DNA of 40,878 bases from a virus, in the UHGV virus genome UHGV-0182401. One strand, written 5' to 3'. Below the pieces are notes generated by a model, which saw only the letters and a list, made by a program, of their open reading frames with translations, had not been told where the DNA came from and made no database searches. Position numbers and translations under genes: made by a program. Position 1 is the first letter of the stretch, and each line of letters opens with the position of its first letter. Positions 3,763-22,335 of this stretch are shown in pieces.

Positions 3763-3929
3763 TTGACCAAAATCGAAGTTACGAACAAGGAAGTGTCGAG
3801 CGAGCTTTAACGTGCGCTAATTGCGGTCAAAAGCTGCATTTTCTGGAAGTTCACGTGTGCTCCGATTGCTGCGCAGAACTGATGAGCGATCCGAATAGCT
3901 CAATGTGCGAGGAAGAAGACGATGAATGA
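3759..3929 (+). CDS. ninE: Nin-region small Cys-rich protein (NinE/NinD family, 56 aa, GTG start)
   Basis: GTG start overlapping the previous stop; CANCGQ...VCSDCC motif; no in-frame ATG upstream. Confidence 0.6.
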
Positions 3930-4647
3930 GTTAATAAATGGCAATGCCATCAAAATGACAAGCATTGAAATCGCTGAGTTGGTAGAAAGCCGCCATAGCA
4001 ATGTAAAAGTATCCATAGATAGATTGGTGAAACGTGGCGTTATCAAGCCTCCTGCATTGCAGCACACTAACATAATCAATTATTTAGGTGTTATTACCGG
4101 GAAGCGTGATTTCTACGTCTTCGAGGGCGAACAAGGTAAGCGAGACAGTATTGTCGTTGTTGCCCAGTTGTCGCCAGAGTTCACCGCTCGCCTTGTTGAC
4201 CGCTGGCGAGAGCTTGAAGAAGCTGCGGTTAATATCCCCAAAACGCTACCAGAAGCGTTGCGCCTTGCTGCTGATCTTGCTGAGCAGAAAATGCAACTGG
4301 AAAACCAGCTCGCAATTGCCGCACCTAAAGTTGAGTTTGCCGATCGCGTTGGCGAGGCCAGCGGAATTTTGATTGGAAACTTTGCAAAGGTTGTCGGTAT
4401 TGGTCAAAACAAACTGTTTGCATGGATGCGCGATCACAAAATCCTTATTGCTTCAGGTTCCCGGCGAAATGTGCCAATGCAGGAATATATGGATCGCGGC
4501 TATTTCACAGTGAAAGAAACAGCGGTCAACACAAATCACGGAATACAGATATCGTTCACCACAAAAATCACCGGGCGTGGTCAACAGTGGCTGACCAGAA
4601 AGCTGCTCGATAACGGAATGCTGAAAGTAACAGGGGAGGCTGCTTAA
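3922..4647 (+). CDS. Roi/antirepressor-like DNA-binding protein (KilA-C/ANT-type C-terminal domain)
   Basis: 241 aa; position in nin region and domain pattern resemble HK022 Roi and phage antirepressors. Confidence 0.6.
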   Translation: MNELINGNAIKMTSIEIAELVESRHSNVKVSIDRLVKRGVIKPPALQHTNIINYLGVITGKRDFYVFEGEQGKRDSIVVVAQLSPEFTARLVDRWRELEEAAVNIPKTLPEALRLAADLAEQKMQLENQLAIAAPKVEFADRVGEASGILIGNFAKVVGIGQNKLFAWMRDHKILIASGSRRNVPMQEYMDRGYFTVKETAVNTNHGIQISFTTKITGRGQQWLTRKLLDNGMLKVTGEAA

Positions 4648-4937
4648 TGGCTAACCTACGCAAAGAAGCGCGCGGCAGAGAATGCCAGGTACGTATTTAC
4701 GGCGTATGCAATGGCAACCCTGAAACTACAGTTCTGGCACATTACCGGATGGCTGGAATTTGCGGAACGGGAATGAAGCCTGACGACCTGATCGGCGCAT
4801 GGGCTTGTAGTGACTGCCACGCGGAGATCGACCGACGCACCCATAATCTCGACAACAAAGACGCCAGACTTTACCACCTCGAAGGCGTAATCAGGACGCA
4901 GGCGATACTGCTGAAGGAGGGGAAGATTAAGTCATGA
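4647..4937 (+). CDS. ybcO: YbcO-like protein (DUF1364)
   Basis: 96 aa, MANLRKEARGRECQVRIYGVCNGNPET... closely matches remembered DLP12 YbcO; same position upstream of rusA. Confidence 0.75.
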   Translation: MANLRKEARGRECQVRIYGVCNGNPETTVLAHYRMAGICGTGMKPDDLIGAWACSDCHAEIDRRTHNLDNKDARLYHLEGVIRTQAILLKEGKIKS

Positions 4938-5296
4938 ACGAATATCAGTTTGTGCTTCCTTACCCGCCGTCGGTGAACACCTACTGGCGAAGACGGGGAA
5001 GCCAATACTACATCAGCGATAAAGGCCAGAAATACCGAAAAGACGTTCAGCAAATCATCCGCCAACTCAAGTTAGACATTTTCACCAAATCACGACTCCG
5101 CATCAAAGTCATCGCAGACGTTCCAGACTCCCGCCGCCGCGACCTCGACAACATCCTGAAAAGTTTACTCGACTCCCTTATCCACGCCGGATTTGCGGAA
5201 GACGACGAGCAATTCGATGACATTCGCGTAATTCGTGGTGTGAAAGTACCAGGTGGAAGACTTGGAATAAAAATCACCGAACTGGAGAACGCATGA
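4934..5296 (+). CDS. rusA: RusA Holliday-junction resolvase
   Basis: 120 aa with the conserved RRRDLDN motif and overall match to RusA. Confidence 0.9.
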   Translation: MNEYQFVLPYPPSVNTYWRRRGSQYYISDKGQKYRKDVQQIIRQLKLDIFTKSRLRIKVIADVPDSRRRDLDNILKSLLDSLIHAGFAEDDEQFDDIRVIRGVKVPGGRLGIKITELENA

Positions 5297-5478
5297 ACGC
5301 CACAATTCAAACGATACCAGAGCTTCTTATCCAGACACGAGGCAATCAGACCGAAGTGGCGAGGATGCTTTCCTGTGCAAGAGGAACAGTGCTCAAGTAC
5401 AACCGAGACAGCAAAGGTGAGCGTCACGTAATAGTTAACGGCGTCCTGATGGTAACGCCAGGCAAAAAGGGAAGATGA
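5293..5478 (+). CDS. ninH: NinH-like small DNA-binding protein
   Basis: GNQTEVARMLSCARGTVLKY matches the remembered lambda NinH core. Confidence 0.7.
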   Translation: MNATIQTIPELLIQTRGNQTEVARMLSCARGTVLKYNRDSKGERHVIVNGVLMVTPGKKGR

Positions 5479-5996
5479 TGAGCATAAGAGAACTAAACCT
5501 CACCAAAGAACAGCACGATTGGCTGAATTGCTGGCTTGAACTGTGGGGCGCATGGGTTTATTCAGGTCGTCTGGAAAAGCGCATGAGCAGCGTAATAGCG
5601 AAGTTCATGGAGAGCGTAGAGCCGGGAAGAGTTATGACAAGGCCAATGTGCAATGATGATGATGGAATGTTGATTTCTCAGGTCGTCGATTCCGTCATGT
5701 ACATTGACAAGAAAGCCTTTGGCATCCTCCTCAGCTACTACGCTCATGGTTCATCTAAGCGAGCAATTGCATCCTACTATCACGCGACTGCAAAGCCACG
5801 CAAGATGTGTGGACGTGGTGGCGAGGGATGGAGAAAACCTTCACTGGCAACCTGTAGAAACGAAATTGACGACATCCTGAAAGCGTCGTTATTTGTTTTG
5901 TACCAGCCAATGCAAAATGCTTTCAAAATGCGTAAACGTGTTGAGAAAGTTAAGCATGTTGCTGTTAAAAGCCTTGACATGCAATTATCCATTTAG
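5475..5996 (+). CDS. Late-gene antiterminator Q (Q21/QuuD-like family)
   Basis: WGAW and CNDDDGMLI motifs resemble remembered QuuD; last gene before the candidate late promoter. Confidence 0.7.
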   Translation: MMSIRELNLTKEQHDWLNCWLELWGAWVYSGRLEKRMSSVIAKFMESVEPGRVMTRPMCNDDDGMLISQVVDSVMYIDKKAFGILLSYYAHGSSKRAIASYYHATAKPRKMCGRGGEGWRKPSLATCRNEIDDILKASLFVLYQPMQNAFKMRKRVEKVKHVAVKSLDMQLSI

Positions 5997-6013
5997 CCAT
6001 AATTAGAAGGTAA

Positions 6014-6056
6014 GCTGCCGTTAGTGACTCTTAAGTTGCAATGGTGGCTTTTTTTG
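6014..6056 (+). terminator. Possible terminator downstream of Q
   Basis: Imperfect 9-bp stem with G-U pairs and a 17-nt loop, followed by TTTTTTT. Confidence 0.3.
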
Positions 6057-6132
6057 TTTGCACAACAGGTAAGAGCATTGAACCCGCAGACCTCGCGGAA
6101 TTGGTGAAAGGTGCCGCGCAGTGCTCTTATCG

Positions 6133-6263
6133 TTGTGGTGAACTCAATGGCGAGCTAGCAGATAGGCGACAGTGAAAATACTAGTCATGTAGCTGACCGC
6201 CGCGCGTACTGCAATCGGCAGCGCACCGATGGAAGCCGGTTCGATTCCGGCCGCCACAACCCA
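6133..6263 (+). other. tRNA-like element: canonical T-arm (GCCGG-TTCGATT-CCGGC), 7-bp acceptor-like pairing and CCA end, but about 131 nt long
   Basis: GGTTCGATTCC T-loop at 6238-6248; 6133-6139 pairs with 6253-6259; CCA at 6261-6263. No canonical D or anticodon arm could be folded by eye. Confidence 0.3.
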
Positions 6264-6423
6264 AACTGAGCCGTAGCCACTGGCTATCCTGAATTCATCA
6301 GTGATAGTTACGCTGCGGCCTTCTACACATGACCTTCGTGAAAGCGGGTGGTTCAATTCTGCTGTCTTCTTCACGTTAAAAGAGGAATTAGGCTTCGAAA
6401 ATGCAAAAACTTGCAAAAATGAC

Positions 6424-6452
6424 TTGAAAACGAGTTTTGAAACTGCATAATT
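6424..6452 (+). promoter_or_regulatory. Candidate late promoter (pR-prime-like): TTGAAA-N17-ATAATT
   Basis: Near-consensus -35/-10 with 17-bp spacer, downstream of Q and about 80 nt upstream of a strong terminator. Confidence 0.5.
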
Positions 6453-6534
6453 CCTATATGCTCGGACGTCAAAGGCGAAAGAGCTTACCCACCAGCGAAG
6501 ATGCCTTGTGCGGAGCGGTGGGAAACACATTCAA

Positions 6535-6565
6535 GCCCTTGCAGAAATGCAGGGGCTTTTTTATT
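6535..6565 (+). terminator. Intrinsic terminator (tR-prime-like)
   Basis: GCCCTTGCA-GAAA-TGCAGGGGC hairpin followed by TTTTTTATT; immediately upstream of the cargo cluster. Confidence 0.65.
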
Positions 6566-6592
6566 GGCTCAGTGCCACCAGGTGAACACCGT

Positions 6593-7144
6593 ATGCACAC
6601 GGCGATCATTTGCGCTTCCGGACCTTCCCTCACCCACGACGACTGCCAGAAAGCCATTGGCGCTGGATTACCCGTTATTGCGGTGAATTCTTCATGGCGC
6701 GCGGTGCCGGGATGCTCTCACATTTACGCGGGTGATCTGCGCTGGTGGGATGTGAACATTCCCGCGCTGCCCGATGGCCCCGAACGCTGGTCATGTAACC
6801 GGAGAGCACACACCCGATACGGCGTGAGCCTCTTCCCGACAGATACCAGCGGCACATTCAATTCGGGGCAGAGAGCAATCCTGTTCGCTCACTGGCTGGG
6901 TGCCAGTAGCATCATCCTTCTGGGCTTCGATTGCTCAATCTCAAACGGTAGTCACTGGCACGGCGATCACACAGTCCTCGATAACCCGACAGCAGCGAAC
7001 GTAAAGCGCTGGCATGGCGAGTTTGCCCGGGTTGCGGCGCAGCTGCGTGGAAGCGTCAATATCATCAACAGCAGCCGCCAGACGGCGCTTAATTGCTTTC
7101 GTCGCTTACCTCTTGAAGCTGCGATCAGCGAGGTTACATGCTGA
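6593..7144 (+). CDS. Cargo protein of unknown function (183 aa)
   Basis: ATG with GGTGA ribosome-binding site just after the terminator; the 6437 track start would run through the promoter and terminator. No confident family match. Confidence 0.55.
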   Translation: MHTAIICASGPSLTHDDCQKAIGAGLPVIAVNSSWRAVPGCSHIYAGDLRWWDVNIPALPDGPERWSCNRRAHTRYGVSLFPTDTSGTFNSGQRAILFAHWLGASSIILLGFDCSISNGSHWHGDHTVLDNPTAANVKRWHGEFARVAAQLRGSVNIINSSRQTALNCFRRLPLEAAISEVTC

Positions 7145-8079
7145 ATCCTCCGATTTACATCGATGGCATGCTGGGAATGGGAGATACCATTTACCAGCGC
7201 GCTTTCGTCAAACAACTGCCTGCTGGGACATTCATTAAGACGGCATGGCCGGAGCTTTACGAAGATCTGCCGGTGAAAGTTGTCCGAAGTGACACCACGC
7301 TCAGAACGCAGCGTAAAAATGAGTTTCGCAGTTCGGCAAAGTTTTATCCGCCGCCATCGCCACGACAGACGAAGCGAATATTTTACGGACCGTATGATCT
7401 GCGGCGCGGTTCGATATTTGATGCGATGCGACGCCAGTTCGGCGTAACGCCAGCAGCGCTTGATTTGCCATCCTTTGGCCCGTCGCAGTTTACGCACCAA
7501 AAGCCGATCGCCGTTATCCGTCCGGCAACGGTTCGTTCTGAATGGCGTAGCGACTCCCGAAACCCTGACCCCGATTACCTCCTGCGCGCATCGAGAATCC
7601 TGCGGAAACATTTCTGCGTGATTAGCGTTGCTGATTTGCAGGACGGGGAAGAGTGGCTGGTGGGTGAAGAACCAGAGGCGGATCTGAAAATGCACGCTGG
7701 CGAGCTCAATATCAAAGAGCTGATGCGCCTGGTTGAGCATGCCGCTGTCGTGGTTACGCCTGTTGGCTGGGCGCTGCCCGCTGCCATTGCGTACAAAACA
7801 CCTGTTTACGTTGTCGCTGGTGGGCGCGGTGGGCATAACGCTCCCGAGATAGTCACCGATCCGGCGATGGATTTATCCCGCGTTGGCTGGGCAATCCCGG
7901 ACAATTATTGTCGCTGCGAAGCGTGGGATCACCATTGCGACAAACGCATCTTCAACTTTGATTCAAAATTCGAGACATGGCTGAATGAAGTCGTTTTATC
8001 AGGAACTGAACAGCGGGCTGGTATTCCTCCCGGAGCTGGGCATCGGTCGTTATCCGGTTCCGGCATCACGCCCGTATGA
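7138..8079 (+). CDS. GT-B fold glycosyltransferase-like protein (GT9/heptosyltransferase-like motifs)
   Basis: N-terminal GMGD-type motif and C-terminal VVVTPVGWALPAAIAYKTPVYVVAGG resemble GT9 motifs; 7-nt overlap with the upstream gene. Confidence 0.55.
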   Translation: MLNPPIYIDGMLGMGDTIYQRAFVKQLPAGTFIKTAWPELYEDLPVKVVRSDTTLRTQRKNEFRSSAKFYPPPSPRQTKRIFYGPYDLRRGSIFDAMRRQFGVTPAALDLPSFGPSQFTHQKPIAVIRPATVRSEWRSDSRNPDPDYLLRASRILRKHFCVISVADLQDGEEWLVGEEPEADLKMHAGELNIKELMRLVEHAAVVVTPVGWALPAAIAYKTPVYVVAGGRGGHNAPEIVTDPAMDLSRVGWAIPDNYCRCEAWDHHCDKRIFNFDSKFETWLNEVVLSGTEQRAGIPPGAGHRSLSGSGITPV

Positions 8080-8599
8080 CGAGCAGTATTTCGCGAAGTA
8101 TCAGCAGCTTGCCGACACCGAAACAGGCAGAGCCTTAACGCAATCCCGTATTGAGCTGGTGGCGCGCCATTTTCACGGTCCTGTTCTCGACGTTGGTATC
8201 GGTGCCGGTCAGTTCGTCTCTACCCGACCGGGAACGCTTGGGTATGACATTAATCCGGCTGGTATCGCCTGGCTGAACGAGCGGGGCGCATTCGCTGACC
8301 TCTACGCCAGTCAGTGGCGCGCGCTGACGATGTGGGATGTCCTGGAGCACATCGACGAGCCGGAGCTGGCGGTACAGCAGGCTACAGAGTTTGTTTTCGT
8401 GTCGATCCCCATTTTTACCGATGCCGGAGACATTCTTCGCTCGCACCATTTCAGGAAGAACGAGCACATCTGGTATTTCACTGACGACGGTATTAAGCGC
8501 TGGTTTGCAGAGCAGGGCTTCGAATGCGCTGAACAGAACACAATCGAATGCCAGTTAGGGCGTAAGGGCGTCGCTTCGTACGCTTTCCGCCGCGTTTAG
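7985..8599 (+). CDS. Class I SAM-dependent methyltransferase
   Basis: Motif I VLDVGIGAGQF and downstream WDVLEHIDEP typical of the Rossmann-fold methyltransferases; only in-frame ATG is at 7985, giving a 95-nt overlap with the upstream gene. Confidence 0.7.
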   Translation: MKSFYQELNSGLVFLPELGIGRYPVPASRPYDEQYFAKYQQLADTETGRALTQSRIELVARHFHGPVLDVGIGAGQFVSTRPGTLGYDINPAGIAWLNERGAFADLYASQWRALTMWDVLEHIDEPELAVQQATEFVFVSIPIFTDAGDILRSHHFRKNEHIWYFTDDGIKRWFAEQGFECAEQNTIECQLGRKGVASYAFRRV

Positions 8600-8673
8600 T
8601 CCCCTCTTAGCCCATTGCATTTGGGTTTATTCCAGTTTCGCACACATCACCCGCAAACAGGCGAGGTCAACCT

Positions 8674-8832
8674 ATGAATAGCTCTCACGGGATTTTTGAA
8701 CAAACCATGAAATGGATCGCGCTATATCTGCCGTCAGTTTACGCCGGGTTATGCGCTCTGGGCATCTCAGCGCTTATCGACATACGCGCAGGGAAGCCGA
8801 AACTCTACACCGCCACTGGCGCGCTAAATTAA
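8674..8832 (+). CDS. Small hydrophobic protein (52 aa, one predicted transmembrane helix)
   Basis: ATG with GAGGT ribosome-binding site; hydrophobic stretch WIALYLPSVYAGLCALGISALI; just upstream of the holin. Below the ORF-track cutoff. Confidence 0.4.
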   Translation: MNSSHGIFEQTMKWIALYLPSVYAGLCALGISALIDIRAGKPKLYTATGALN

Positions 8833-8863
8833 ATAGAGCAAATCCCCTTATTGTGGGTAAGAC

Positions 8864-9187
8864 ATGAAGATGCCAGAAAAACATGACCTGTTAGCCGCCA
8901 TTCTCGCGGCAAAGGAACAAGGCATCGGGGCAATCCTTGCGTTTGCAATGGCGTACCTTCGCGGCAGATATAATGGCGGTGCGTTTACAAAAACAGTAAT
9001 CGACGCAACGATGTGCGCCATTATCGCCTGGTTCATTCGTGACCTTCTCGACTTCGCCGGACTAAGTAGCAATCTCGCTTATATAACGAGCGTGTTCATC
9101 GGCTACATCGGTACTGACTCGATTGGTTCGCTTATCAAACGCTTCGCTGCTAAAAAAGCCGGAGTAGAAGATGGTGGAAATCAATAA
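8864..9187 (+). CDS. S: Holin, lambda S type
   Basis: 107 aa, essentially identical to remembered lambda S, including the MKM dual-start motif. Confidence 0.9.
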
Positions 9188-9647
9188 TCAACGTAAGGCG
9201 TTCCTCGATATGCTGGCGTGGTCAGAGGGAACTGATAACGGACGTCAGAAAACCAGAAATCATGGTTATGACGTCATTGTAGGCGGAGAGCTATTCACTG
9301 ATTACTCTGATCACCCTCGCAAACTTGTCACGCTAAATCCGAAACTCAAATCAACAGCCGCCGGACGCTACCAGCTTCTTTCCCGTTGGTGGGATGCCTA
9401 CCGCAAGCAGCTTGGCCTGAAAGACTTCTCTCCGAAAAGCCAGGACGCTGTGGCATTGCAACAGATTAAAGAGCGTGGCGCTTTACCGATGATTGACCGC
9501 GGTGATATTCGTCAGGCAATCGACCGTTGCAGCAATATCTGGGCTTCACTGCCGGGCGCTGGTTATGGCCAGTTCGAGCATAAGGCTGACAGCCTGATTG
9601 CAAAATTCAAAGAGGCTGGCGGAACGGTCAGAGAGATTGAGGTATGA
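9171..9647 (+). CDS. R: Endolysin, lambda R type (lytic transglycosylase)
   Basis: 158 aa, near-identical to remembered lambda R. Confidence 0.9.
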
Positions 9648-10081
9648 GCAGAGTCACCGCGATTATCTCCGCTCTGGTTATCTGCATCATCGTTTGCCTG
9701 TCATGGGCTGTTAATCATTACCGGGATAACGCCATCGCCTACAAAGCCCAGCGCGACAAAGCCACATCCATCATCGCTGACATGCAGAAGCGTCAACGTG
9801 ATGTAGCAGAACTTGACGCCAGATACACAAAGGAGCTTGCTGATGCTAACGCGACTATCGAAAGTCTCCGTGCTGATGTTTCTGCTGGTCGTAAGCGCCT
9901 GCAAGTCGCCGCCACCTGTGCAAAGTCAACGACCGGAGCCAGCAGCATGGGCGATGGAGAAAGCCCAAGACTTACAGCAGATGCTGAACTCAATTATTAC
10001 CGTCTCCGAAGTGGAATCGACAGGATAACCGCGCAGGTTAACTACCTGCAGGAATACATCAGGACGCAATGCCTGAAATAA
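9644..10081 (+). CDS. Rz: Rz spanin (inner-membrane subunit)
   Basis: N-terminal transmembrane segment and strong match to lambda Rz in the first 40 residues. Confidence 0.85.
9843..10028 (+). CDS. Rz1: Rz1 spanin lipoprotein, embedded in the +1 frame of Rz
   Basis: Signal peptide [20 protein letters not shown] with lipobox VSAC and a proline-rich mature region, wholly inside Rz. Confidence 0.7.
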
Positions 10082-10279
10082 TTTTTTTGCAAATCACAAA
10101 GTCAATTTAATGAGCCTCGCGATGCGGGGCTTTTTATATCTGAATTTCACAGCGCATCTCACGCGCATATTAACGAGAGCCTTTCAGTAAGCGAGCCTGA
10201 GAAATGCCGTTATAGGTGGCGACCTCTCTCGGGCGGCTTTTCTGTGAGACAGGCTCACTTTCTAAAAGGTAAAGACGCT

Positions 10280-10798
10280 ATGAATCATCAATTGGCTAAT
10301 CTCGATTTCCGGGACATGGTGGTTGTTTCTGGTGATCGCGTGATCACAACCTCCCGCAAGGTAGCAGCTTACTTCGACAAGCAGCATCACCACATCATTC
10401 AGAAAATCGAAAAGCTAGACTGTTCGGATGAATTTCTAACCAGCAACTTTTCGCGGGTTACCTATGAACACAAGGGTAATCAGTATGTTGAATATGAAAT
10501 TTCCAAAGACGGCGCGATGTACATCATCATGTCGTTTACCGGCAAAAAAGCTGCCGCCATCAAAGAGGCGTTTATCAAAGCATTTAATTGGATGCGTGAC
10601 AGGCTGATGGAGATGGCTCACTCATACCAAAGAGAGCACAACGAGTTAATGCTGGAGTTCATGAAGGAAAAGGATGTTGCCAGTATGTCAGGACGCTTGC
10701 TGAACCGCTGGGGCAGGATCAAAAAACCGCAACTCATAGCAAGAATCGAAAGGCTTGAGCAGCAGGCGCAAATATCGATCCCCGGACTGCCAAAGTGA
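10280..10798 (+). CDS. rha: Rha-family phage regulatory protein
   Basis: N-terminal region resembles the Rha domain; start chosen at MNHQLANL. Confidence 0.65.
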   Translation: MNHQLANLDFRDMVVVSGDRVITTSRKVAAYFDKQHHHIIQKIEKLDCSDEFLTSNFSRVTYEHKGNQYVEYEISKDGAMYIIMSFTGKKAAAIKEAFIKAFNWMRDRLMEMAHSYQREHNELMLEFMKEKDVASMSGRLLNRWGRIKKPQLIARIERLEQQAQISIPGLPK

Positions 10799-11150
10799 CC
10801 ATTCCAAAGCCCATCTACGGGTGGGCTTGATAATGAAACCGTGATTTACATCCCCACAATCCGGGTATGTAAAAGATAGTTCAGGCGAGAACAGATTTAA
10901 CTAAATCTGTGCACCACCAGTTACGGCAGTACCACGAAGCAACCCAAGCCAGTAAGTGGGGAAATAACACTGGCAGCCACTGAAAGATGAACCTCCAGCC
11001 TTATGGCAAAAAAGATTCTTTGTGGTGGCGGGCTGATGGAAAGACATCGGTTATTGCAGAGACCATTCAATGAGTGGTCTCGACAATGGCTTATACCCTA
11101 CACGGGATAACTTAACTGATATCCCTTTTAACGGATAAACGGAGCCAATA

Positions 11151-11648
11151 ATGGCAAAGCTCACAGACAAACAAGAGCTGTTTGCCCATCCGGATGATGT
11201 GTATGTCGGAGAGTGTGTGATTTATACCGGCTACATAAATAAGCGAGGGTATGGGCAGAAGCACATTTCACGAAAGCCGCACTACGCACATCGAATCGCA
11301 TACTGCGAAGCTAACGGAATTTCGCTAGATAGCATCAAGGACCTGGTTGTTAGGCATAAATGCGATAATCCATCATGCGTGAATCCTGACCATCTGATTA
11401 TAGGTACTGTCGCTGACAATAATCGTGACAGGTCAAGGCGAGGCAGAAACTCATACCCTGACCGTTCAGGTGAAAAGAACGGAATGGCGAAATTAAAAGA
11501 GTGCGATGTCATCTGCATTCGACGTGAATATGTCCGCGGGAGCATTGGTAGGGGGCTTAGATCCTTATCAGAGAAATATGGCGTATCGACGACCATGATT
11601 GCTGACATCGTTAATTATAGAAATTGGAGCAACGTTTCGGGGGTGTGA
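11151..11648 (+). CDS. HNH endonuclease
   Basis: HRIAY...HKCDNPSCVNPDHL HNH motif; immediately upstream of the terminase genes. Confidence 0.75.
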   Translation: MAKLTDKQELFAHPDDVYVGECVIYTGYINKRGYGQKHISRKPHYAHRIAYCEANGISLDSIKDLVVRHKCDNPSCVNPDHLIIGTVADNNRDRSRRGRNSYPDRSGEKNGMAKLKECDVICIRREYVRGSIGRGLRSLSEKYGVSTTMIADIVNYRNWSNVSGV

Positions 11649-11649
11649 T

Positions 11650-12204
11650 TTGAAACAGCTCACACCTAAGCAGGAACTGTTCTGCCGGGAATATTTAAAA
11701 GATTTAAACGCCACTCAGGCAGCTATCAGGGCGGGTTACAGCGAGAAAACTGCTCGCGCCACTGGTAGCGAGAACCTGTCAAAACCTGACATAGCAGATC
11801 GCATTGCTGAGCTAAAGGCTGAACGCAATGAAGAGGTAGGTATAGACGCTGCCTATGTATTGCGACGGCTGACTGAAATCGATCAGATGGACGTGCTTGA
11901 CATTCTGCTTGCCAATGGCGAACTGAAGCCCATTAAAGACTGGCCTAAGGTATGGCGCACAACGCTATCAGGAATGGATGTCGTCGAGATGGCATCAGCA
12001 GATAGTGCTGCTCTCCTGAAGAAAATCAAATGGCCTGATAAGGTTAAAAACCTTGAGTTGCTCGGGCGTCATGTTTCTGTTCAGGCGTTTAAAGACAATG
12101 TCAAAAATGAAGTGACTGGTGCTGACGGAGGACCAGTCAGAACAGAAATTACCAACTTAACGCCGGAGCAGGCTGCAGAAGCGTATAAAAAAATGATGGG
12201 CTAA
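11650..12204 (+). CDS. Terminase small subunit
   Basis: [28 protein letters not shown] helix-turn-helix region typical of small terminase; start ambiguous (TTG at 11650 after GGGGGTG, or TTG at 11599). Confidence 0.7.
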
Positions 12205-12206
12205 GT

Positions 12207-13829
12207 ATGCCGTTACCATTTCCCTTCGATTTTAAACATCCTGATTACCAGATGGTTTTTGAATGGCGGATGGAACGCTTACAGCGCATTCGCCAGAACC
12301 CTGAAATATTGCCAGCACTAAAACAGTTTTACCGAACCAACCCGGCTCAGTTCATCATCGACTGGGGCATGACAACGGACCCGCGTAATATTGATTATGG
12401 CCTGCCGGTGACCATTCCGTTTTTACTCTTCCCTAAGCAGGAGGAGTGGATCCACTGGATTATGGAACGCTGGGGCAATCGGGAGAATGGTATTACCGAA
12501 AAATCCCGTGAAATGGGACTCAGTTGGACCGCGATCGGACTGGCCTGCTCGCTTTGTCTCTTCAACAAAGAAATGGTCATCGGCTTCGGCTCCCGTAAAG
12601 AGGAATACGTCGACAGCACCGGTGACCCGAAGGCGCTGTTCTGGAAGGCGCGAAAGTTCGTGGAAACACTGCCCATCGAGTTTCGTGGTTCGTGGGACGA
12701 GAAGAAGCATGCGCCGTATATGCGCGTTGAGTTTCCAGATACTGGCGCGGTTATCAAAGGCGAGGCTGGCGACAATATCGGACGTGGTGACCGTACCACG
12801 CTCTACCTGGTGGATGAAGCTGCATTCCTCCAGCGTCCTCTGTTGATTGATGCGGCGCTGTCGCAAACCACCCGTTGCCGTATTGACCTGAGCTCGGTTA
12901 ATGGCATGGCGAACCCGTTCGCGCAGAAGCGCCACGGCGGAAAAATACCAGTATTCACGTTCCACTGGCGAGATGACCCGCGCAAGGATGAAGAGTGGTA
13001 TCGCAGGGAGTGCGAGAAAATCGACAATCCGGTGGTGGTGGCGCAGGAACTTGACCTGAACTACAGCGCATCTGCGGAAGGCGTCCTGATCCCGTCCGAC
13101 TGGGTACAGGCTGCCGTCGACGCGCATATCAAACTTGGTATTCAGCCAACGGGCAAGCGACTGGGCGCGATGGACGTCGCCGACGAAGGCAGGGACAAAA
13201 ATTCCTTTTCCACCCGTCATGGCTTCCTCCTGGAGAATGTGCGGGAATGGTCCGGTGTGGGCAGCGACATTTATCAGTCCGTCGAGAAGGTCTTCGGTTT
13301 TTGCGAACAGGACAACCTCGAAGAGTTTCGCTTTGACGAGGACGGGCTGGGCGCTGGCGTTCGCGGCGATGCACGCGCTATCAACGAACTGCGTAACGCT
13401 GCGCGCCGACCGTCAATACTCGCCACACCGTTTCGAGGTAGTGGCGCGGTATTTGATCCGGATGATGAAGCTATTCGCGGGGACAACGGGCAAGCCGCCC
13501 GCCTGAACAAGGACTTCTTCGCTAACGCCAAGGCCCAGAGCTGGTGGCGGTTACGTAAACTTTTTCAGAATACCTGGCGCGCCGTGGTTGAAGGTATGGC
13601 TTACAACCCGGACGAAATCATCTCAATCAGCAGTAGCATGGCACTCAAAGATAAACTCATCATCGAGCTTTCGCAGCCGACCTATTCCATTAATGGTGTG
13701 GGAAAAATCGTTATTGATAAACAGCCTGACGGCACCAAGTCGCCGAACCTCGCCGACTCGGTGATGATCAGCTACGCGCCAATGAATTCAGCCCTGAACA
13801 TCTGGGAGCTGCTAGGGAGACAGGCCTGA
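12207..13829 (+). CDS. Terminase large subunit
   Basis: 540 aa directly after the small subunit; ATPase and nuclease-like regions. Confidence 0.8.
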
Positions 13830-15295
13830 TGGCACGAAACAAGCAAGCCTCTCAGCGAACGGCGCAGGCCACCGCTGATGGCTACGAGAACTTTGTCGCC
13901 CGCGTGGGGATGCAGACGCCTAACCAGCATTCAGCATCGACCTACCGGGCGAACTTCACCAGCCGCAACCGCATGCTGGTGGAATGGTCCTATCGTTCGT
14001 CCTGGATCATCGGCGAAGCGGTCGACGCTATCCCGGATGATATGACCCGCAAAGGCATTCGCATTACTTCGGAAATTGATGCAAAAGATCGCGGCATTCT
14101 CGAATCACAACTTGATGAGTTGCAGATCTGGGATGCGCTGAACGACGTGCTGAAATGGTCTCGCCTCTACGGCGGCGCGGTCGGCTTCATCATGATCGAG
14201 GGGCAGGCACCAATGACCCCGCTGCGGCTCGAAACCATTGGAGAAGGCAAGTTTAAGGGCATTCTCCCGCTTGACCGCTGGATGATTAACCCGGTGCTGA
14301 CCCGTCGCATTAAAGAGATGGGGCCAGATCTCGGCAAACCTGAGTTTTACGACGTGGTGACCACTGCAACGGGCATCCCGGCCTGGCGCATCCATCACAG
14401 CCGCCTGATTCGCTTCGACGGGGTGACGCTACCATTCCAGCAGAAGATGACCGAAAACGAATGGGGAATGTCGGTTGTAGAGCGTATCTGGGATCGGCTT
14501 ACTGCGTTCGACAGCGCCACTGTCGGCGCGGCGCAGCTTGTCTACAAAGCGCATCTGCGTACCTACAAAGTGAAAAAACTCCGTGAGCTTATTGCGCTGG
14601 GTGGCCCCGCGTTCGAAGCGCTGCTGAAGAACATCGATCTGATTCGCCAGTTCCAGAGCAATGAAGGCATGACGCTGATGGATTCCGAAGATACTTTCGA
14701 AACCCACCAGTACAGCTTCAGTGGTCTGGATGACATTCTTTCGCAGTTCGCTGAGCAGATCAGCGGTGCCGTTGGTATCCCGCTGGTACGCCTGTTCGGT
14801 CAATCCCCGAAAGGCTTCTCTACTGGTGATGCAGACCTCGCCAACTATTACGACCGGGTGAGTTCATTGCAGGAGCGCCGCTTACGGATTCCGATGCGCC
14901 GGATACTGGACATTATGCACCGCTCGGAACTCGGTAAGCCGCTGCCGGACGATTTCACGTTTGAGTTTAACCCGCTCTGGCAAATGTCTGATGTCGATCG
15001 CTCAACGGTGGCGTTAAACACTACCAACGCAATCAGTACGGCGCTGGGTGATGGTCTGATGACACTGAAAGCCGCTATGACCGATTTGCGCGAAAATTCT
15101 GACGTAACCGGCATCGGGGCATCCATTACCGACGAGGACATAGAGAATGCCGAAGACGAAGCGCCGCCAGGCATCGGCGAACTTGGCGACAAACCGCCAG
15201 AGTCGCCAGGCGGAGATCCGATATCGAACGAGCCTACGGCAGATAGCGCGGGCGGTCGGGGATATCGTAAATGGGCGCTACGATGGTTCAAATGA
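13829..15295 (+). CDS. Portal protein
   Basis: 488 aa following the large terminase with ATGA start overlap; size and position. Confidence 0.75.
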   Translation: MARNKQASQRTAQATADGYENFVARVGMQTPNQHSASTYRANFTSRNRMLVEWSYRSSWIIGEAVDAIPDDMTRKGIRITSEIDAKDRGILESQLDELQIWDALNDVLKWSRLYGGAVGFIMIEGQAPMTPLRLETIGEGKFKGILPLDRWMINPVLTRRIKEMGPDLGKPEFYDVVTTATGIPAWRIHHSRLIRFDGVTLPFQQKMTENEWGMSVVERIWDRLTAFDSATVGAAQLVYKAHLRTYKVKKLRELIALGGPAFEALLKNIDLIRQFQSNEGMTLMDSEDTFETHQYSFSGLDDILSQFAEQISGAVGIPLVRLFGQSPKGFSTGDADLANYYDRVSSLQERRLRIPMRRILDIMHRSELGKPLPDDFTFEFNPLWQMSDVDRSTVALNTTNAISTALGDGLMTLKAAMTDLRENSDVTGIGASITDEDIENAEDEAPPGIGELGDKPPESPGGDPISNEPTADSAGGRGYRKWALRWFK

Positions 15296-15920
15296 TAGCG
15301 TTACCGAAATAATGGATGCGCTGGAGCGCTACAGCGAAATCATCACCCCCTGGGCGACTAAGGTTGCTGAGAGCTTCACCGCCGACATTGCGCGCCAGAA
15401 TGAAAAGCAGTGGCGTCAACACAGCCGGAACATCAGCGCAGAGCTGCGCAACATGGTTGACCGCGCCCCGGTAGGCCAGGTGATGAAATCCATCGTCGCC
15501 GAGCAAATTAAGTACATCAAATCTCTGCCTCTTGAGGCCGCCGATCGGGTGTATGACATTCAGAACAAGGCCATCGAGGCCGTTGTGTCTGGTGGCCGCG
15601 CTGAACCATTCGCGAAAGAGATAGCAGCGTCCGGTGACGTGTCACGCTCACGAGCGAACCTTATCGCCCGGACTGAGCTTGGGCGCGCAACCGGCGCGCT
15701 CGATCAGGCGCGTGCGCTGTCAATCGGCTCGAATGGTTATATCTGGCGTACAGCCGAAGATGGCGACGTCCGGCATTCTCATCGAGAGATGGAAGGGAAG
15801 TTTGTCGAATGGGGCCGACCTCCAACGCTTGACGGCATGACCGGTCACGCTGGCGAGCTCCCGAACTGCCGCTGTTACAAAGAAATCGTCTTCCCCAACC
15901 CTCATTCTTATCTCGCCTGA
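15147..15920 (+). CDS. Head morphogenesis protein (Mu F-like)
   Basis: C-terminal TAEDGDVRHSHREMEG...NCRCY motif characteristic of the Mu F family; start uncertain because of the overlap with portal. Confidence 0.7.
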   Translation: MPKTKRRQASANLATNRQSRQAEIRYRTSLRQIARAVGDIVNGRYDGSNDSVTEIMDALERYSEIITPWATKVAESFTADIARQNEKQWRQHSRNISAELRNMVDRAPVGQVMKSIVAEQIKYIKSLPLEAADRVYDIQNKAIEAVVSGGRAEPFAKEIAASGDVSRSRANLIARTELGRATGALDQARALSIGSNGYIWRTAEDGDVRHSHREMEGKFVEWGRPPTLDGMTGHAGELPNCRCYKEIVFPNPHSYLA

Positions 15921-15934
15921 ATCGCAGGTAAACC

Positions 15935-17155
15935 ATGAAATATTTTTTCAATACCCGGCTGGGGGAAACCCGCTATCAGCTGGCTGACGGCTCGTTGCTG
16001 TGCAAAGACGTGCCGATAGGACGAACAGGTAAGCAGCTCTATGGTGCTGATGACCTGCCAAAACTGAAACCCGATAAGTTCGGTGAAATAGTCGTCACGC
16101 GTTCTCCTGAGCAGGTATTCCATCCCGCCACGCTTGCCTCATTCGAAGGAATGAGTATCACGGTGTTGCATCCCGAGGATGAAAACGGGGATGTGCGGCT
16201 GGTCAACCCCGAGAACTGGAAAGAGCTTGCGGTCGGGCATCTTCAGAACGTTCGGCGCGGGACTGGTGATCAGTCTGATTTGATGCTGGCTGACCTTATC
16301 GTCAAAGACGAAAGCGCCATTCAGCTTATCGAAGATGGCCTGCGTGAAGTGTCGTGTGGCTATGACGCGGAGTACGAGCAGACCGAGCCAGGTAAAGCCG
16401 AGCAGGTCGATATTACCGGAAACCATGTGGCTCTTGTCCCTAAAGGCAGAGCCGGAAATCGTTGTGCAATTGGAGACAGAGACACAATGGCAAATCAAAA
16501 GAAAAGCTGGTGGACCCGCATGCGCACGGCCATCAAAACGGGTGACGCTGACACCATGAACGAACTGCTGGACTCTGCGCCAGCGGCGGTAACGGGTGAC
16601 GAAGGGGATCTGCCGAGCGGCGTTAACCTCAACATTAACCTTTCACCGCAGCAACCATTGCCGGACAAAAAGCCGGAAATGGGCGGAGAGCCAACCGGCG
16701 ACGGCGAGGACGATATCAAAACCTTGCTTAAAGCCCTGCTGGCTAAGCTGGAAGGAAATGCGACGGGCGATAACGACAATAAGCCTGACGATAATCCGAC
16801 CGGTGACGGCGAGGACGATGAAGAGGAAACCACGATTACTGGTGACTCAGCCTGGCGTGCCGAAGTTATCGTTCCGGGTATCGATCTGAGCCGTAAGATG
16901 AAACCGACCGCGTTCAAACGCGAGGTTCTGGCTTCCGCTGACAAAACGCTGGTTCGCCAGATAGTCGGCGATGCGGATATCCGCAAATTGCCGAAACAAT
17001 CGGTCAACATGGCGTTTAATGCCGTGTCAGAGATTGCCAAAGGGCGAAACACCCGCAGCACCACGGGCGATGCACAACGTCCAAATATGGGCATGACCAG
17101 CATCGCTTCCCTGAACAAACAAAACGCCGACTTCTGGTCTAACCGCAAAGGATAA
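15935..17155 (+). CDS. Putative scaffolding/prohead protein
   Basis: 406 aa with an acidic low-complexity central region; position between head morphogenesis and capsid genes. Confidence 0.45.
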   Translation: MKYFFNTRLGETRYQLADGSLLCKDVPIGRTGKQLYGADDLPKLKPDKFGEIVVTRSPEQVFHPATLASFEGMSITVLHPEDENGDVRLVNPENWKELAVGHLQNVRRGTGDQSDLMLADLIVKDESAIQLIEDGLREVSCGYDAEYEQTEPGKAEQVDITGNHVALVPKGRAGNRCAIGDRDTMANQKKSWWTRMRTAIKTGDADTMNELLDSAPAAVTGDEGDLPSGVNLNINLSPQQPLPDKKPEMGGEPTGDGEDDIKTLLKALLAKLEGNATGDNDNKPDDNPTGDGEDDEEETTITGDSAWRAEVIVPGIDLSRKMKPTAFKREVLASADKTLVRQIVGDADIRKLPKQSVNMAFNAVSEIAKGRNTRSTTGDAQRPNMGMTSIASLNKQNADFWSNRKG

Positions 17156-17159
17156 TCCA

Positions 17160-17663
17160 ATGACTGCATATCTGTACCGGATGCCTGTTGGCATTGCCGG
17201 GGCTATCTCTCGCCCGCAGGACTTAACCGTCGAACCGGTGGTCCTTAAATCCGATAACGCCTTTGCTGCCTATGGGCTGGCTGGTAAATACGATGATGAC
17301 GGTTTTTTCGTGCCGCTGGAGGACGGTGACACCGCCGACAAGGTGAAGGGGATCTACGTTCGTCCGTATCCGACCACATCGCAGCCAGACATGGTTCGCC
17401 AGGTGGGGACGGATAAGAATTTCCCGGGCGACGCCATGAAACGTGGCTACATGACCGTTAACCTTGGATCTGGCTTCGATGCCAGCACCATCAAAAAAGG
17501 TGATCCTGTCTACGTGGTCGTTTCGCTCGATTCAACCATTGACGTGCCGCTGGGCGGCTTCATGTCCACGTCCGTCAGTGGCAAAAACGTGGCGCTGACC
17601 AACGCCGAATTCACAGGGGCCGGTGACGCTAACGGCAATGCAGAAATCTCCTGGAAGATTTAA
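17160..17663 (+). CDS. Head structural protein
   Basis: 167 aa immediately upstream of the major capsid gene. Confidence 0.45.
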   Translation: MTAYLYRMPVGIAGAISRPQDLTVEPVVLKSDNAFAAYGLAGKYDDDGFFVPLEDGDTADKVKGIYVRPYPTTSQPDMVRQVGTDKNFPGDAMKRGYMTVNLGSGFDASTIKKGDPVYVVVSLDSTIDVPLGGFMSTSVSGKNVALTNAEFTGAGDANGNAEISWKI

Positions 17664-17674
17664 GGAACAGACGA

Positions 17675-18616
17675 ATGATTACTTTTGATCAGGCAACAGT
17701 TGATAGCTCTGGTGCCTTTCTCATCGGGGAGCTGGAGCGACTCGACCAGACGCTGAACCTGCCACTGGTGGGGTACACCTGGACCCGCGATATCCAACTG
17801 CGTGAAGATGTCTCCATCGCAGATGACATTTCCAGCTGGACGAATACCAGCTTCGCCGCTGCGGGTACTGGCGCAAATCCGAATGGCAAAAACTGGGTAG
17901 GCAAAGACTCAACCGCTATTGCTGGCGTAAACGTGGATATCGGCAAATCCGGTAACCCGCTGAATCTCTGGGGCATGGAACTGGGCTGGACCGTTGTAGA
18001 GCTGGCAGCAGCTCAGCAGGTAGGTCGCCCGATTGACACCCAGAAGTACGACGGGATGCAGCTCAAATGGCAGATGGACAACGACGAGCAGGTGTATGTT
18101 GGCGATTCCGCATTAAACCTGAAAGGCCTTGTTACCCTGAACGGTGTTCCTGTCAACAACGCTGCCAAAACGTGGGCAACCTCAACACCGGACGAAATCC
18201 GCGCAAGCATTAACCAGGTGCTGTCTGATGCGTGGGCCGCTTCTGGTTACTCTGTGGTTCCGCGTGATTTGCTGATCCCGCCAGAGCAGTTTGCTCTGTT
18301 GTCCAGCATCATCGTTTCATCTGCGGGTAACCAGTCCCTGTTGACGTACCTTCAGACCAACACCATCAGCTATCACCAGAACGGTGTTCCGCTGAATATC
18401 CGCGCGGTTAAATGGCTGAAAGGCCGTGGTGTGGGGAATAAGGATCGCATGGTTGCGTACACCAACGATAAAAAATACGTCCGCTATCCGCTGGTGCCGT
18501 TGCAGAGCGTTCCTATCCAGTATCGCGGTCTGTATCAGATTGCGACCTACTACGGCAAGCTCGGTGCGGTTGAGCCAGTGTACAAAGAAACCATTTCGTA
18601 CGTTGATGGCATTTAA
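17675..18616 (+). CDS. Major capsid protein
   Basis: 313 aa in the capsid position, followed by a strong GC hairpin. Confidence 0.7.
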   Translation: MITFDQATVDSSGAFLIGELERLDQTLNLPLVGYTWTRDIQLREDVSIADDISSWTNTSFAAAGTGANPNGKNWVGKDSTAIAGVNVDIGKSGNPLNLWGMELGWTVVELAAAQQVGRPIDTQKYDGMQLKWQMDNDEQVYVGDSALNLKGLVTLNGVPVNNAAKTWATSTPDEIRASINQVLSDAWAASGYSVVPRDLLIPPEQFALLSSIIVSSAGNQSLLTYLQTNTISYHQNGVPLNIRAVKWLKGRGVGNKDRMVAYTNDKKYVRYPLVPLQSVPIQYRGLYQIATYYGKLGAVEPVYKETISYVDGI

Positions 18617-18623
18617 CAGCCAT

Positions 18624-18644
18624 ATGGCCCCCTTGCGGGGCCAT
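18624..18644 (+). other. Stable hairpin after the capsid gene (ATGGCCCC-TTGC-GGGGCCAT)
   Basis: 8-bp stem; no T-run, so more likely an mRNA-stabilising or attenuating structure than an intrinsic terminator. Confidence 0.4.
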
Positions 18645-18657
18645 TAAGGATGACCCA

Positions 18658-18879
18658 ATGGCAAAAAATAATGCAGTAATACACGTACATACCCCGTTTG
18701 TGCTCACGCTTCCCGACGGTTCGCGGCGCGAGTTTGTTAAAGGCCGTCATGCAGTGGAGGAAGACGTTGCCACGCACTGGTTCACTCGTGCGCACGCGGA
18801 AGTATCCGTTGGCAAAGCCACAGACGCGCGTAACGAGGTAAAAAATGCCAAAGAATCAAAGTCTGCCAACGGTAAGTGA
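18658..18879 (+). CDS. Hypothetical head-tail joining region protein
   Basis: ORF with upstream AGGA; position only. Confidence 0.4.
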
Positions 18880-19252
18880 TTTTCGCCGCGACTTCCCGCA
18901 GTTTGTTGACCCTGCCAAATATCCCGAAGCGCAAATCCAGTTTCGTCTGAATCTGGCCGATGAACTGCTGAGCGAAAACGTCACCGGCAAAAAGTTGTTT
19001 CCGTACTTTGCCGGGTTGTTCGTTGCGCACTACATGACGCTCTGGGCGGCAGACAGCAGAGCGATGCTGGCTGGTGGTCCGGGCGGTTCAACCAATGGTG
19101 TTCAATCCTCTAAGTCCGTTGACAAGGTAAGCGTCAGCTATGACACCAGCGCGACGCTGAATCCTGATGCAGGTTTCTGGAATAACACCCGATATGGCGT
19201 TGAATTTTATCAGTTGATCACGATGTTCGGTGCAGGTGGTCGCCAGCTATGA
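18845..19252 (+). CDS. Putative head-tail connector/adaptor protein
   Basis: Position and operon coupling. Confidence 0.45.
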
Positions 19253-19803
19253 GTTTCAAAAGCGGTGTAACAACGAGGGTGGATAACGCTAAGGCCATTC
19301 TGGATGCGCTCAGGTCGCTAACCAAAAAGGATGTGCTGGTCGGCATCCCTTCGGAAGACAGCGAGCGTGAAGATGTTCAGTTTGGTAATGCCGGGATCGG
19401 CTATGTCAACGAATACGGCTCACCAGCGCAAAACATCCCCCCACGCCCGCACCTGACCCCCGGCGTTAAATCGGTAGAGGAACAGACAGTGCCGCAGCTC
19501 AAAGCAGCGGCGCAGGCTGCGCTTGATGGAAATGCGGTGGGGGCGGAAAGAGCGCTCAACCGTGCCGGAACGCTGGCCGCTAATGGCGTCAGGCGTTACA
19601 TGACTATTACCGGCTTTACACCGCTTGCTGATAGCACCGTTGAAGCCCGCGCACGTCGAGGTCGCAAAGGGGCGAAAGCTGAGCTTGCCCGACGCGCTGC
19701 TGGTGAGTCTCCTGGAACCGATCTGGTGAAACCGCTAATCGACACCGGGCAATATCGCAGAGCTATTACCCATATTGTGAGGGATAAAGATGCCGACTCT
19801 TGA
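19249..19803 (+). CDS. Putative head completion protein
   Basis: ATGA overlap with the upstream gene; position. Confidence 0.45.
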
Positions 19804-20176
19804 TGTAACAGACGTGCTTTTTGACCCCGATTTTTGCGACTTCAACCTGTGGGTAACGCGTCGCGCGCAAACGGTGGACGATGACGGGATCGGCAGCGAC
19901 AGCGAAGTTAAAACGCAGTTTGCCGGGGTTGTTACTGTTGACCGCTCCCTGGAAAACCGCCGCATGCAGGCCGGGCAGGTTATCAGCGGCGCGATTCTCA
20001 TCGTGACAACTGAGCGGCTGACACAGGGGCAGACTGGCCGTGATGCCGATATCGTGACGTATCAGGGCCGTGATTATCGTGTGACATTCGTCGACCCGTA
20101 TACCGCTTACGGTGCTGGCTTCGTCCAGGCGCATTGCGAACTGTTGCCGTTTGATGGGGGTACTCCCGTTGAGTAA
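19790..20176 (+). CDS. Putative tail completion protein
   Basis: Position between head and sheath genes. Confidence 0.45.
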   Translation: MPTLDVTDVLFDPDFCDFNLWVTRRAQTVDDDGIGSDSEVKTQFAGVVTVDRSLENRRMQAGQVISGAILIVTTERLTQGQTGRDADIVTYQGRDYRVTFVDPYTAYGAGFVQAHCELLPFDGGTPVE

Positions 20177-20717: not shown

Positions 20718-20720
20718 ACT

Positions 20721-21881: not shown

Positions 21882-21891
21882 GGAGCGATAA

Positions 21892-22332: not shown

Positions 22333-22335
22333 CGC

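Follow-up and report, generated by a model that had tools for sequence, protein, structure and literature searches.

What might three enzyme genes do for a phage that carries them between its late antiterminator gene Q and its holin gene? The question is raised by UHGV-0182401, a virus genome of 40,878 nt that was analysed over its whole length (the window), in which three consecutive genes, here called g1, g2 and g3, occupy positions 6593–8599 of the + strand. The results given below make it very probable that this cassette is a late-expressed module that builds a glycan. That the acceptor of the glycan is a virion protein is the explanation preferred here, but it is put forward tentatively, its chances being slightly short of even.

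Folds and families of the three proteins

A preliminary description of this DNA had presented the genes as co-directional and overlapping, and the listing of open reading frames (ORFs) agrees with it: g1 lies at 6593–7144 (183 residues), g2 at 7138–8079 (313 residues, with a conserved core formed by residues 1–287, to about nt 7998) and g3 at 7985–8599 (204 residues), all on the + strand. The first two share 7 nt (ATGCTGA), and g2 and g3 share 95 nt that are read in different frames. Since all three match PHROG families (phrog_4603 for g1, E = 4e-49; phrog_6804 for g2, E = 1.7e-110; phrog_6564 for g3, E = 3e-81) and each has hundreds of homologues, they are real genes rather than chance ORFs; the families themselves are now labelled 'unknown' or are mislabelled. 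The start of g1 at 6593 is backed by full-length homologues of 183 residues and by RefSeq models in related prophages, and a Shine-Dalgarno sequence (AGGTGA) lies 8 nt 5′ of it. A longer, TTG-initiated version of g1 (235 codons, from 6437) was rejected because the ORF would span a terminator hairpin. A 289-codon antisense ORF across g1 and g2 (6967–7836, − strand) and other long antisense ORFs were set aside: homology was found for the + strand only, and such ORFs look like what GC-rich coding DNA produces by chance.

The long overlap between g2 and g3 arises because g2 lacks the stop codon found near residue 287 in most homologues. Positions 7999–8079 thus encode a 26-residue read-through tail, predicted to be disordered (predicted local distance difference test score, pLDDT, of 29–42); long and short forms are both present in the family. 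The apparent conservation of the tail is due to the constraint acting on the overlapping, fully conserved N-terminus of g3, and many homologues end earlier. No membrane-spanning segment was found in g1, g2 or g3. All three proteins are near-neutral or acidic, and neither isoelectric point nor hydrophobicity separated the hypotheses considered below.

The product of g1, initially described only as an unknown protein, can now be assigned to the Maf/DUF115 (MptE-like) type as a sialyltransferase-like, putative cytidine monophosphate (CMP)-sugar glycosyltransferase, related to PmgO and PmgP of phage P1. It matches the fold of the central domain of Maf; in comparison with that protein (632 residues), g1 is a bare core of ∼180 residues. 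Residues S9, G10, P11, S12 and L13, N90, S91 and G92, and G111 and D113 are invariant, and the invariant blocks SGPSL, NSG, GxDC and HWHGxH resemble sialyltransferase motifs. When the NSG...GxD block was compared with residues 131–155 of Cst-II (the sequence used was verified to be that of PDB 1RO7), hhalign gave a weak match, with a probability of 19%. In this alignment to the GT42 enzyme family of Cst-I and Cst-II, the catalytic histidine (His188 of Cst-II) is not matched by g1 and falls on a non-His position. The Pfam profile PF01973 (MptE-like) scored below threshold (30.9 bits, with a cutoff of 34.6), only the last 33 profile positions being matched, while a PF01973 hit is precomputed for many close homologues of g1. 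Beside this match stands a different reading, according to which g1 would be an MptE/TPK-type pyrophosphokinase or some other nucleotide-dependent enzyme, and the product of the trio would be a small molecule (a modified sugar nucleotide, a cofactor or a signal, for example) instead of a macromolecular glycan. This reading is considered improbable.

The g2 protein, a putative heptosyltransferase of GT9/TibC-like type, is predicted to adopt a GT-B fold, with two Rossmann-like lobes, the closest structures being those of GT9 enzymes. Its initial classification as GT-B and GT9-like was sustained as regards the fold, but not by a sequence match to the GT9 family profile. There was no match at E ≤ 1 in Pfam or NCBIfam, and so none to PF01075, the family of the lipopolysaccharide (LPS) heptosyltransferases WaaC, WaaF and WaaQ; moreover, the invariant Asp261 of GT9, in the motif 'DTG', falls in g2 within 'VGW'. 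Alignment to E. coli WaaC/F/Q/U with hhalign was marginal (probability of 23%, C-lobe only). A profile search with the g2 family returned 866 representatives after clustering at 50% identity, 775 of them at E ≤ 1e-10 and few being weak matches; the family is distinct from PF01075. Residues G13, G15 and D16 (GxGD) are invariant and are situated at the end of β-strand 1, and D16 may be compared with the catalytic Asp of the G-D motif of WaaC (D13) and of TibC (D110). Also invariant are C258, C260, H265 and C267 (C-x-C-x4-H-x-C), in a loop (253–273) that precedes the last helix. In TibC, a four-cysteine iron finger formed by Cys339/342/358/370 is inserted into the C-lobe (PMC4358343); the cluster of g2 occupies an analogous position, but its ligand set and spacing differ. 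TibC has in addition an N-terminal β-barrel domain and a β-hairpin thumb, and assembles into a dodecamer (PMC4358343). The β-barrel is absent from the model of g2, which begins with Rossmann β-strand 1 at residue 6. Further differences from the TibC/Aah (BAHT) enzymes (PDB 4RAP) are the length (406 residues, versus the 287 of the g2 core), a sequence identity of only 14%, and the fact that no autotransporter substrate accompanies g2. Unlike the LPS heptosyltransferases, g2 is phage-borne and located in a late operon. In terms of the predicted structures, the best relatives of g1 and g2 appear to be protein O-glycosyltransferases.

The assignment of g3 to the class I S-adenosylmethionine (SAM)-dependent methyltransferases was confirmed by its match to PF13489 (Methyltransf_23; E = 1.1e-10, 41.9 bits with a cutoff of 27) and by an intact motif I; the sequences VLDVGIGAGQF and GYDVN vary little or not at all within the family, whose conservation at the N-terminal end begins with residue 1. 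The nearest sequences in the PDB are UbiG-type O-methyltransferases, at a value that is not significant (E = 0.017). Searches of PDB sequences with each of the three proteins and with the family profiles gave nothing significant, and NCBIfam gave nothing useful for any of them. The PADLOC defence-system models did not match g1, g2 or g3, and a role as a defence or anti-defence system was rejected as no match supported it.

The type of methyltransferase bears on whether the substrate could be the phage DNA, which would be glycosylated and methylated after replication and before packaging, as a protection against restriction. GT-B enzymes are known to glycosylate phage DNA, including the transfer of 3-deoxy-D-manno-octulosonic acid (Kdo) and heptose to 5-hydroxymethylcytosine (bioRxiv 10.1101/2023.12.21.572611). 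A DNA substrate would also fit the independence of the cassette from the type of virion, and late timing is compatible with it, as in the case of Mom of phage Mu. However, the cassette and its neighbourhood contain no enzyme that could create an acceptor base, be it a cytosine C5 methyltransferase, a dioxygenase, a hydroxymethylase or a kinase; g3 is of the small-molecule or O-methyltransferase type (PF13489), which is not among the families of DNA methyltransferases; the matches of g2 are to GT9 enzymes and TibC rather than to the T4 β-glucosyltransferase; the three proteins are near-neutral or acidic; and genes for DNA modification are not normally located among head-neck genes. With no base-activating enzyme, the wrong methyltransferase family and the wrong genomic context, DNA modification was rejected as the leading idea, and we regard it as very improbable.

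Conservation of the trio and its position in other phages

Far from being an isolated curiosity, the cluster proved to be a widespread conserved module, present also in the known phages D3 and PAJU2. At least 542 loci with relatives of g2 were found in IMG/VR, of which 80, with identities to g2 of 56–100%, were inspected; the loci found include IMGVR_UViG_3300029005_000004, a 100% match to the window. The complete trio was present, in the same order, in 79 of these 80 loci, the exception being cut by the end of its contig. Proteins exist in which g1 and g2 are fused (P0062 and P0059), and in distant relatives the g2-like part is joined to an MptE-like, genuine GT9, LicD or methyltransferase domain. 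The three proteins very probably constitute one short glycan-assembly pathway. Most carriers are prophages of Enterobacterales (Enterobacter, Citrobacter, Klebsiella, Kluyvera, Serratia, Pantoea, Rahnella, Salmonella and E. coli), while the full trio occurs among isolated phages in the Pseudomonas D3-like phages and PAJU2, Enterobacter phage Mulvp2, Klebsiella and Serratia jumbo phages, and Pseudomonas phage Psp6. Searches with g2 and g3 also matched homologues of both in a Synechococcus phage. One metagenomic phage-like contig (L093) contains at 3994–7092 a gene for a protein of 1032 residues (P0431) that joins genuine GT9 and g2-like domains and is interrupted by an intein with a LAGLIDADG endonuclease; genes for a methyltransferase, a sulfotransferase and another methyltransferase follow on its 3′ side.

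Public annotations of the cassette genes read 'hypothetical protein', 'alpha-2,3-sialyltransferase', 'glycosyltransferase family 9' or 'methyltransferase'. In the full-text literature, no study was found of the cassette, of D3 orf12 and orf13, or of the function of PmgO/PmgP beyond non-essentiality. The enzyme superfamilies and the concept of phage virion glycosylation are already known; uncharacterised are the particular families found here, the constancy with which they occur together and the role proposed for them in phages of Gram-negative bacteria.

The location of the trio varies among phages. A Q-like gene, from one of four Q families, is directly upstream in 35 of the 80 loci, and lysis genes are directly downstream in 38; in 18, all with a different, HK97-type structural module, the lysis genes are upstream. 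In PAJU2 the trio is preceded by the head-closure gene and followed by the neck/tail-terminator genes, and reading frames overlap. In D3, the g1 homologue follows the gene for the major head protein, the small orf6.5 alone being in between, and the homologues of g2 and g3 are among the connector genes, whereas in Mulvp2 the trio is found between the capsid and tail tube genes. Similar neighbourhoods recur in more distant relatives: L090 encodes a 1214-residue MptE-like/GT9-like fusion immediately after a cement gene and a gene for a 333-residue protein (presumed to be the capsid; it has no Pfam match), a g2 relative is directly 3′ of a protease-capsid fusion gene in L091/L092, and another is directly 3′ of an SPP1 Gp13-like capsid gene in L096. 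Because related phages carry the cassette behind their lysis genes or within the head-neck cluster, the slot between Q and the holin gene S is incidental to it. In L091/L092, a cluster at 10001–13848 comprises a LicD-g2-like fusion, a Methyltransf_24 protein, a cytidylyltransferase, LicD and a Methyltransf_23 protein, which suggests a head-associated modification of a phospho-sugar or teichoic-acid-like kind.

Transcription layout and mobility of the cassette

In the window, regulatory genes of lambdoid type are found together with structural genes of myovirus type (terminase, DUF1073 portal, cement protein at 17160–17663, DUF2184 capsid protein at 17675–18616, sheath at 20721–21881, and baseplate). 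The Q gene, the promoter-like sites, the terminator, the gene remnants, the mobile block and the lysis genes described in this section are on the + strand. The antiterminator gene, at 5475–5996, is of the phage 21-like Q type (PF06530 Phage_antitermQ, E = 1.4e-25; phrog_943, E = 1e-92). Its 3′-end is overlapped by the resident late promoter-like site, TTGACA-18-CATAAT (5974–6003; 11/12 in a consensus scan), the flanks of which are common to Sf6 and HK-type phages. A second site of this kind, TTGAAA-16-CATAAT (6424–6451; 10/12), would be the equivalent of pR′ in the phage that donated the block; it falls within sequence that matches the prophage of E. coli I3 (L001; NZ_CP195969.1, around 2.15–2.165 Mb) at 99.75% and a second locus, L002, at 82%. 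An intrinsic terminator follows at 6533–6566, with a hairpin (6533–6558) formed by an 11-bp GC-rich stem and a 4-nt loop, and a T-run, 27 nt before g1. This hairpin is the sole terminator-like site in 5800–9000, and it forms in the minimum free energy fold (−42.7 kcal/mol) of the 121-nt leader (6455–6575). Downstream of the cassette are the lysis genes S (8864–9187), R (9171–9647) and Rz (9644–10081), identified as ORFs, S and R being 98% identical to those of lambda. The cassette therefore occupies the cargo slot between Q and the holin gene, as first reported, and the same arrangement occurs with three other Q families in L001, L002 and L003.

The scans revealed promoter-like sites only 5′ of the cassette, and neither promoter-like nor terminator-like sites within it or between it and S. 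For this reason, the cassette and the lysis genes are taken to form one unit behind a Q-controlled terminator. Expression of the cassette during lytic growth, as proposed from the start, can reasonably be expected to be late, through Q-modified RNA polymerase reading past the terminator.

Recombination has left clear traces at both ends of the cassette. A block spanning 6428–8827, which comprises the donor promoter and terminator, g1–g2–g3 and the 5′ part of the donor holin gene, is 99.75% identical over 2400 nt to the I3 prophage, whose Q gene, endolysin and flanks differ from those of the window. The match to L002 (82%, blastn) starts at window position 6348, corresponding to L002 5849, inside a gene of L002 (5268–5951) that belongs to phrog_753 (anti-termination protein Q-like); window positions 6348–6450 are thus what is left of another Q-like gene, of foreign origin, the 3′-end of which came in with the cassette. 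At the other end, 8674–8832 preserves the N-terminal 52 codons of an additional holin gene of the lambda family and is collinear with the beginning of the I3 prophage holin (8174–8506; PF05106). A cassette-free relative is provided by the prophage of E. coli EC291 (NZ_AP027445.1, around 1.39–1.42 Mb), which has a lambda-type Q and just 434 nt between Q and S. Homology to it restarts exactly at 8827, and over window 8827–23726 its lysis genes are 95.5%, its head-to-sheath genes 88.6% and its capsid gene 99.6% identical. The near-identity of a block with different flanks, together with the fragments of donor Q and holin genes, implies that the cassette arrived as one unit by recombination. Horizontal acquisition, originally suggested on the basis of GC content, is much better supported by this 2.4-kb block and its remnants: the GC content of the cassette (56.1%) does exceed that of both flanks (48%), but the excess is modest and not unusual for this phage, whose structural genes have 53.7% and whose whole window has 50.9%. 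Lambda lacks the cluster, as had been noted, and so do its close relatives. In searches against isolated phages, megablast matched the flanks only and sensitive blastn only short pieces of the cassette. Among 5426 complete E. coli genomes the cassette was present in 9, and the same capsid gene in 341. The module is dispensable and accessory.

Such mobility would also be a feature of a lysogenic-conversion gene set, or 'moron', transcribed from its own promoter (6424–6451) by leakage past the terminator, which would modify a surface protein or glycan of the host for the benefit of the bacterium. The slot is the classic one for cargo (the Stx position), the σ70-like promoter moves with the block, and the block is mobile and accessory, with a GC content different from that of its flanks. 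Against this, the promoter coincides in part with the end of the Q remnant and has a strong terminator within ∼100 nt on its 3′ side, the layout of a Q-dependent late promoter rather than of an independent one; the homologous genes of PAJU2 and D3 overlap adjacent virion genes, with no such promoter unit annotated; and the trio is present in jumbo phages and other isolates as well. A role in lysogenic conversion is accordingly given only a small probability.

Several other features of the region were recorded. Late control is duplicated in the window: behind the resident unit, positions 6348–6566 form another, made up of the terminal part of the foreign Q gene (phrog_753 type), a promoter-like site and a strong terminator. 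The holin remnant (8674–8832) is directly 5′ of the intact lambda S, leaving a recombination scar at the right end of the block (8827). The segment 6040–6350 resembles decayed tRNA genes: ARAGORN found no tRNA in it, Rfam gave a sub-threshold tRNA-like/tmRNA match at 6204–6262 (20 bits), and Sf6, HF4s and other related phages have tRNA-Thr and tRNA-Asn genes at this position. Positions 6255–6350 are shared with the Q–S intergenic region of lambda. Two ordinary lambdoid accessory genes were also present, one of the KilAC antirepressor type in the nin region (3922–4647) and one for a Rha-type regulator, according to the annotation of the I3 prophage, between the lysis and terminase genes (10244–10798).

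The acceptor of the putative glycan and known systems

The function of the cassette had been left as three hypotheses, namely modification of virion proteins, of DNA or of envelope glycans. The comparative context favours the first, without proving it, over the other two: g1 and g2 have protein O-glycosyltransferases as structural relatives, the genes recur beside capsid genes, and mycobacteriophages provide a precedent. In the scheme that we infer, Q-modified RNA polymerase would pass the terminator (6533–6558) after induction, and g1–g2–g3 would be co-transcribed with the lysis and virion genes, being expressed only late. The g1 enzyme would transfer an acidic, CMP-activated sugar to Ser/Thr of a virion protein; in these hosts CMP-Kdo would be the likeliest donor, and a nonulosonic acid the alternative. 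The g2 enzyme would add heptose from adenosine diphosphate (ADP)-heptose to the sugar placed by g1, or directly to the protein, and g3 would O-methylate the glycan as a cap. Terminal methylation by WbdD caps polymannose O-antigens, an analogy only for what g3 might do, and some mycobacteriophage glycosylation gene sets include a methyltransferase. The likeliest acceptor would be a protein of the head, either the major capsid protein or the cement protein, or else some other protein exposed on the virion, so that glycan-decorated particles would result. The complete proposal, late O-glycosylation of virion proteins from host sugar nucleotides with methyl capping, is offered with the same reserve as the nature of the acceptor, as something nearly as likely to be right as wrong.

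A number of observations weigh against this proposal. No acceptor protein was identified here; Ser/Thr-rich acceptor tails were looked for on the virion proteins of the window and none were seen, and since the EC291 prophage has a 99.6% identical capsid gene and yet no cassette, the capsid carries no cassette-specific feature. The sugar donors of g1 and g2 are guesses, and the cyanophage with homologues of g2 and g3 counts against Kdo and heptose, as cyanobacterial LPS is often poor in both. The virion modules that accompany the trio are of five or more unrelated kinds (the DUF2184 myovirus capsid of the window, the HK97-like capsids of L063 and D3, the protease-capsid fusion of PAJU2, and those of the jumbo phages and the cyanophage), which argues for a generic acceptor or flexible specificity. 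In the window and in 38 of the 80 loci it is beside lysis genes and not capsid genes, and accessory genes are commonly inserted in each of the three slots concerned (Q–S, post-Rz and head-tail). The label 'structural protein', given by the depositors of PAJU2 to its g1 homologue (ORF010), would speak for the proposal, but its basis could not be confirmed. Finally, the sequence links of g2 to GT9 (23%) and of g1 to Cst-II (19%), both by hhalign, are weak, and the LPS heptosyltransferases score nearly as high as TibC against g2, so the fold cannot tell a protein from a glycolipid acceptor.

This last point leads to the host envelope as a target. Here, g1 and g2 would act during lytic growth on lipid-linked acceptors at the inner membrane, as do WaaA, WaaC and WaaF, adding an extra Kdo-like sugar and heptose to Kdo2-lipid A or the LPS inner core, or to intermediates of capsule or enterobacterial common antigen, with g3 methylating the product; the altered surface and debris might, for instance, reduce re-adsorption of the progeny or block superinfection. 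However, expression minutes before lysis would leave little time to replace surface LPS, and the known phage genes for O-antigen or LPS conversion are expressed in the lysogen and situated near att/int, not in late operons. The repeated placement among head-neck genes, with translational coupling, would be hard to explain. The three proteins also lack membrane-spanning segments, although so do WaaC and WaaF. Remodelling of the envelope was therefore judged unlikely.

If virion proteins are indeed the acceptors, the cassette might represent the first virion-protein glycosylation system of Gram-negative phages, a portable kit that draws on the LPS inner-core precursors of the host, CMP-Kdo and ADP-heptose, to build a methyl-capped, Kdo/heptose-type glycan on capsid or other exposed proteins of unrelated virions; in this specific form the idea is possible but rather doubtful. 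Glycosylation of the particle would then extend beyond the mycobacteriophages to phages of enterobacteria and Pseudomonas, including D3-like and P1-like laboratory phages, and phrog_4603, phrog_6804, phrog_6564 and P1 PmgO/PmgP would gain a function. The glycan could alter the particle surface, shielding it from antibodies or proteases in the gut, reducing its sticking to debris or masking capsid features sensed by host immunity, and the three genes would be a compact tool to decorate phage particles, with a bearing on the immunogenicity and pharmacokinetics of therapeutic phages. Whatever the acceptor, the cassette is a testable case of a phage drawing on host sugar-nucleotide pools late in infection. 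The natural relatives with and without it, whose comparison the preliminary description had called for, make the test direct: the I3 prophage carries a near-identical block, and the EC291 prophage is cassette-free.

Among known phages, the closest parallels are D3 (orf7, orf12 and orf13) and PAJU2 (gp10–12), which have true homologues of all three genes (32–49% identity). P1 has only two paralogues of g1 and lacks g2 and g3; its PmgO is 37% identical to g1, and the P7 equivalents, HdmB and HdmC, are g1 paralogues too. In the P1 genome (AF234172.1), PmgO and PmgP are encoded in tandem at 5593–6779, each with a weak MptE-like match, in a late-promoter operon and beside the gene for the Ppp phosphatase; both proved dispensable in a CRISPR interference screen (PMC10695390). 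In P1, P7, D3 and PAJU2, the homologues are all located in late or morphogenetic regions. With Stx and other cargo of the Q–S slot, the cassette has in common the position and the presumed need for Q-mediated read-through of a terminator, but it consists of a set of enzymes rather than a toxin. As regards function, the nearest system is that of the mycobacteriophages, some of which have been shown to O-glycosylate their own capsid and tail proteins with enzymes that they encode (Freeman et al. 2023, summarised in PMC11652166). The glycosyltransferase genes there are phage-borne, dispensable and late-acting, in which we propose a parallel with the cassette; the glycans are attached to capsid and tail tube subunits at the C-terminus (PMC11652166). 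The mycobacteriophage system differs further in having actinobacterial hosts and in using other glycosyltransferase families, the enzymes of the cassette being Maf-like and GT9-like.

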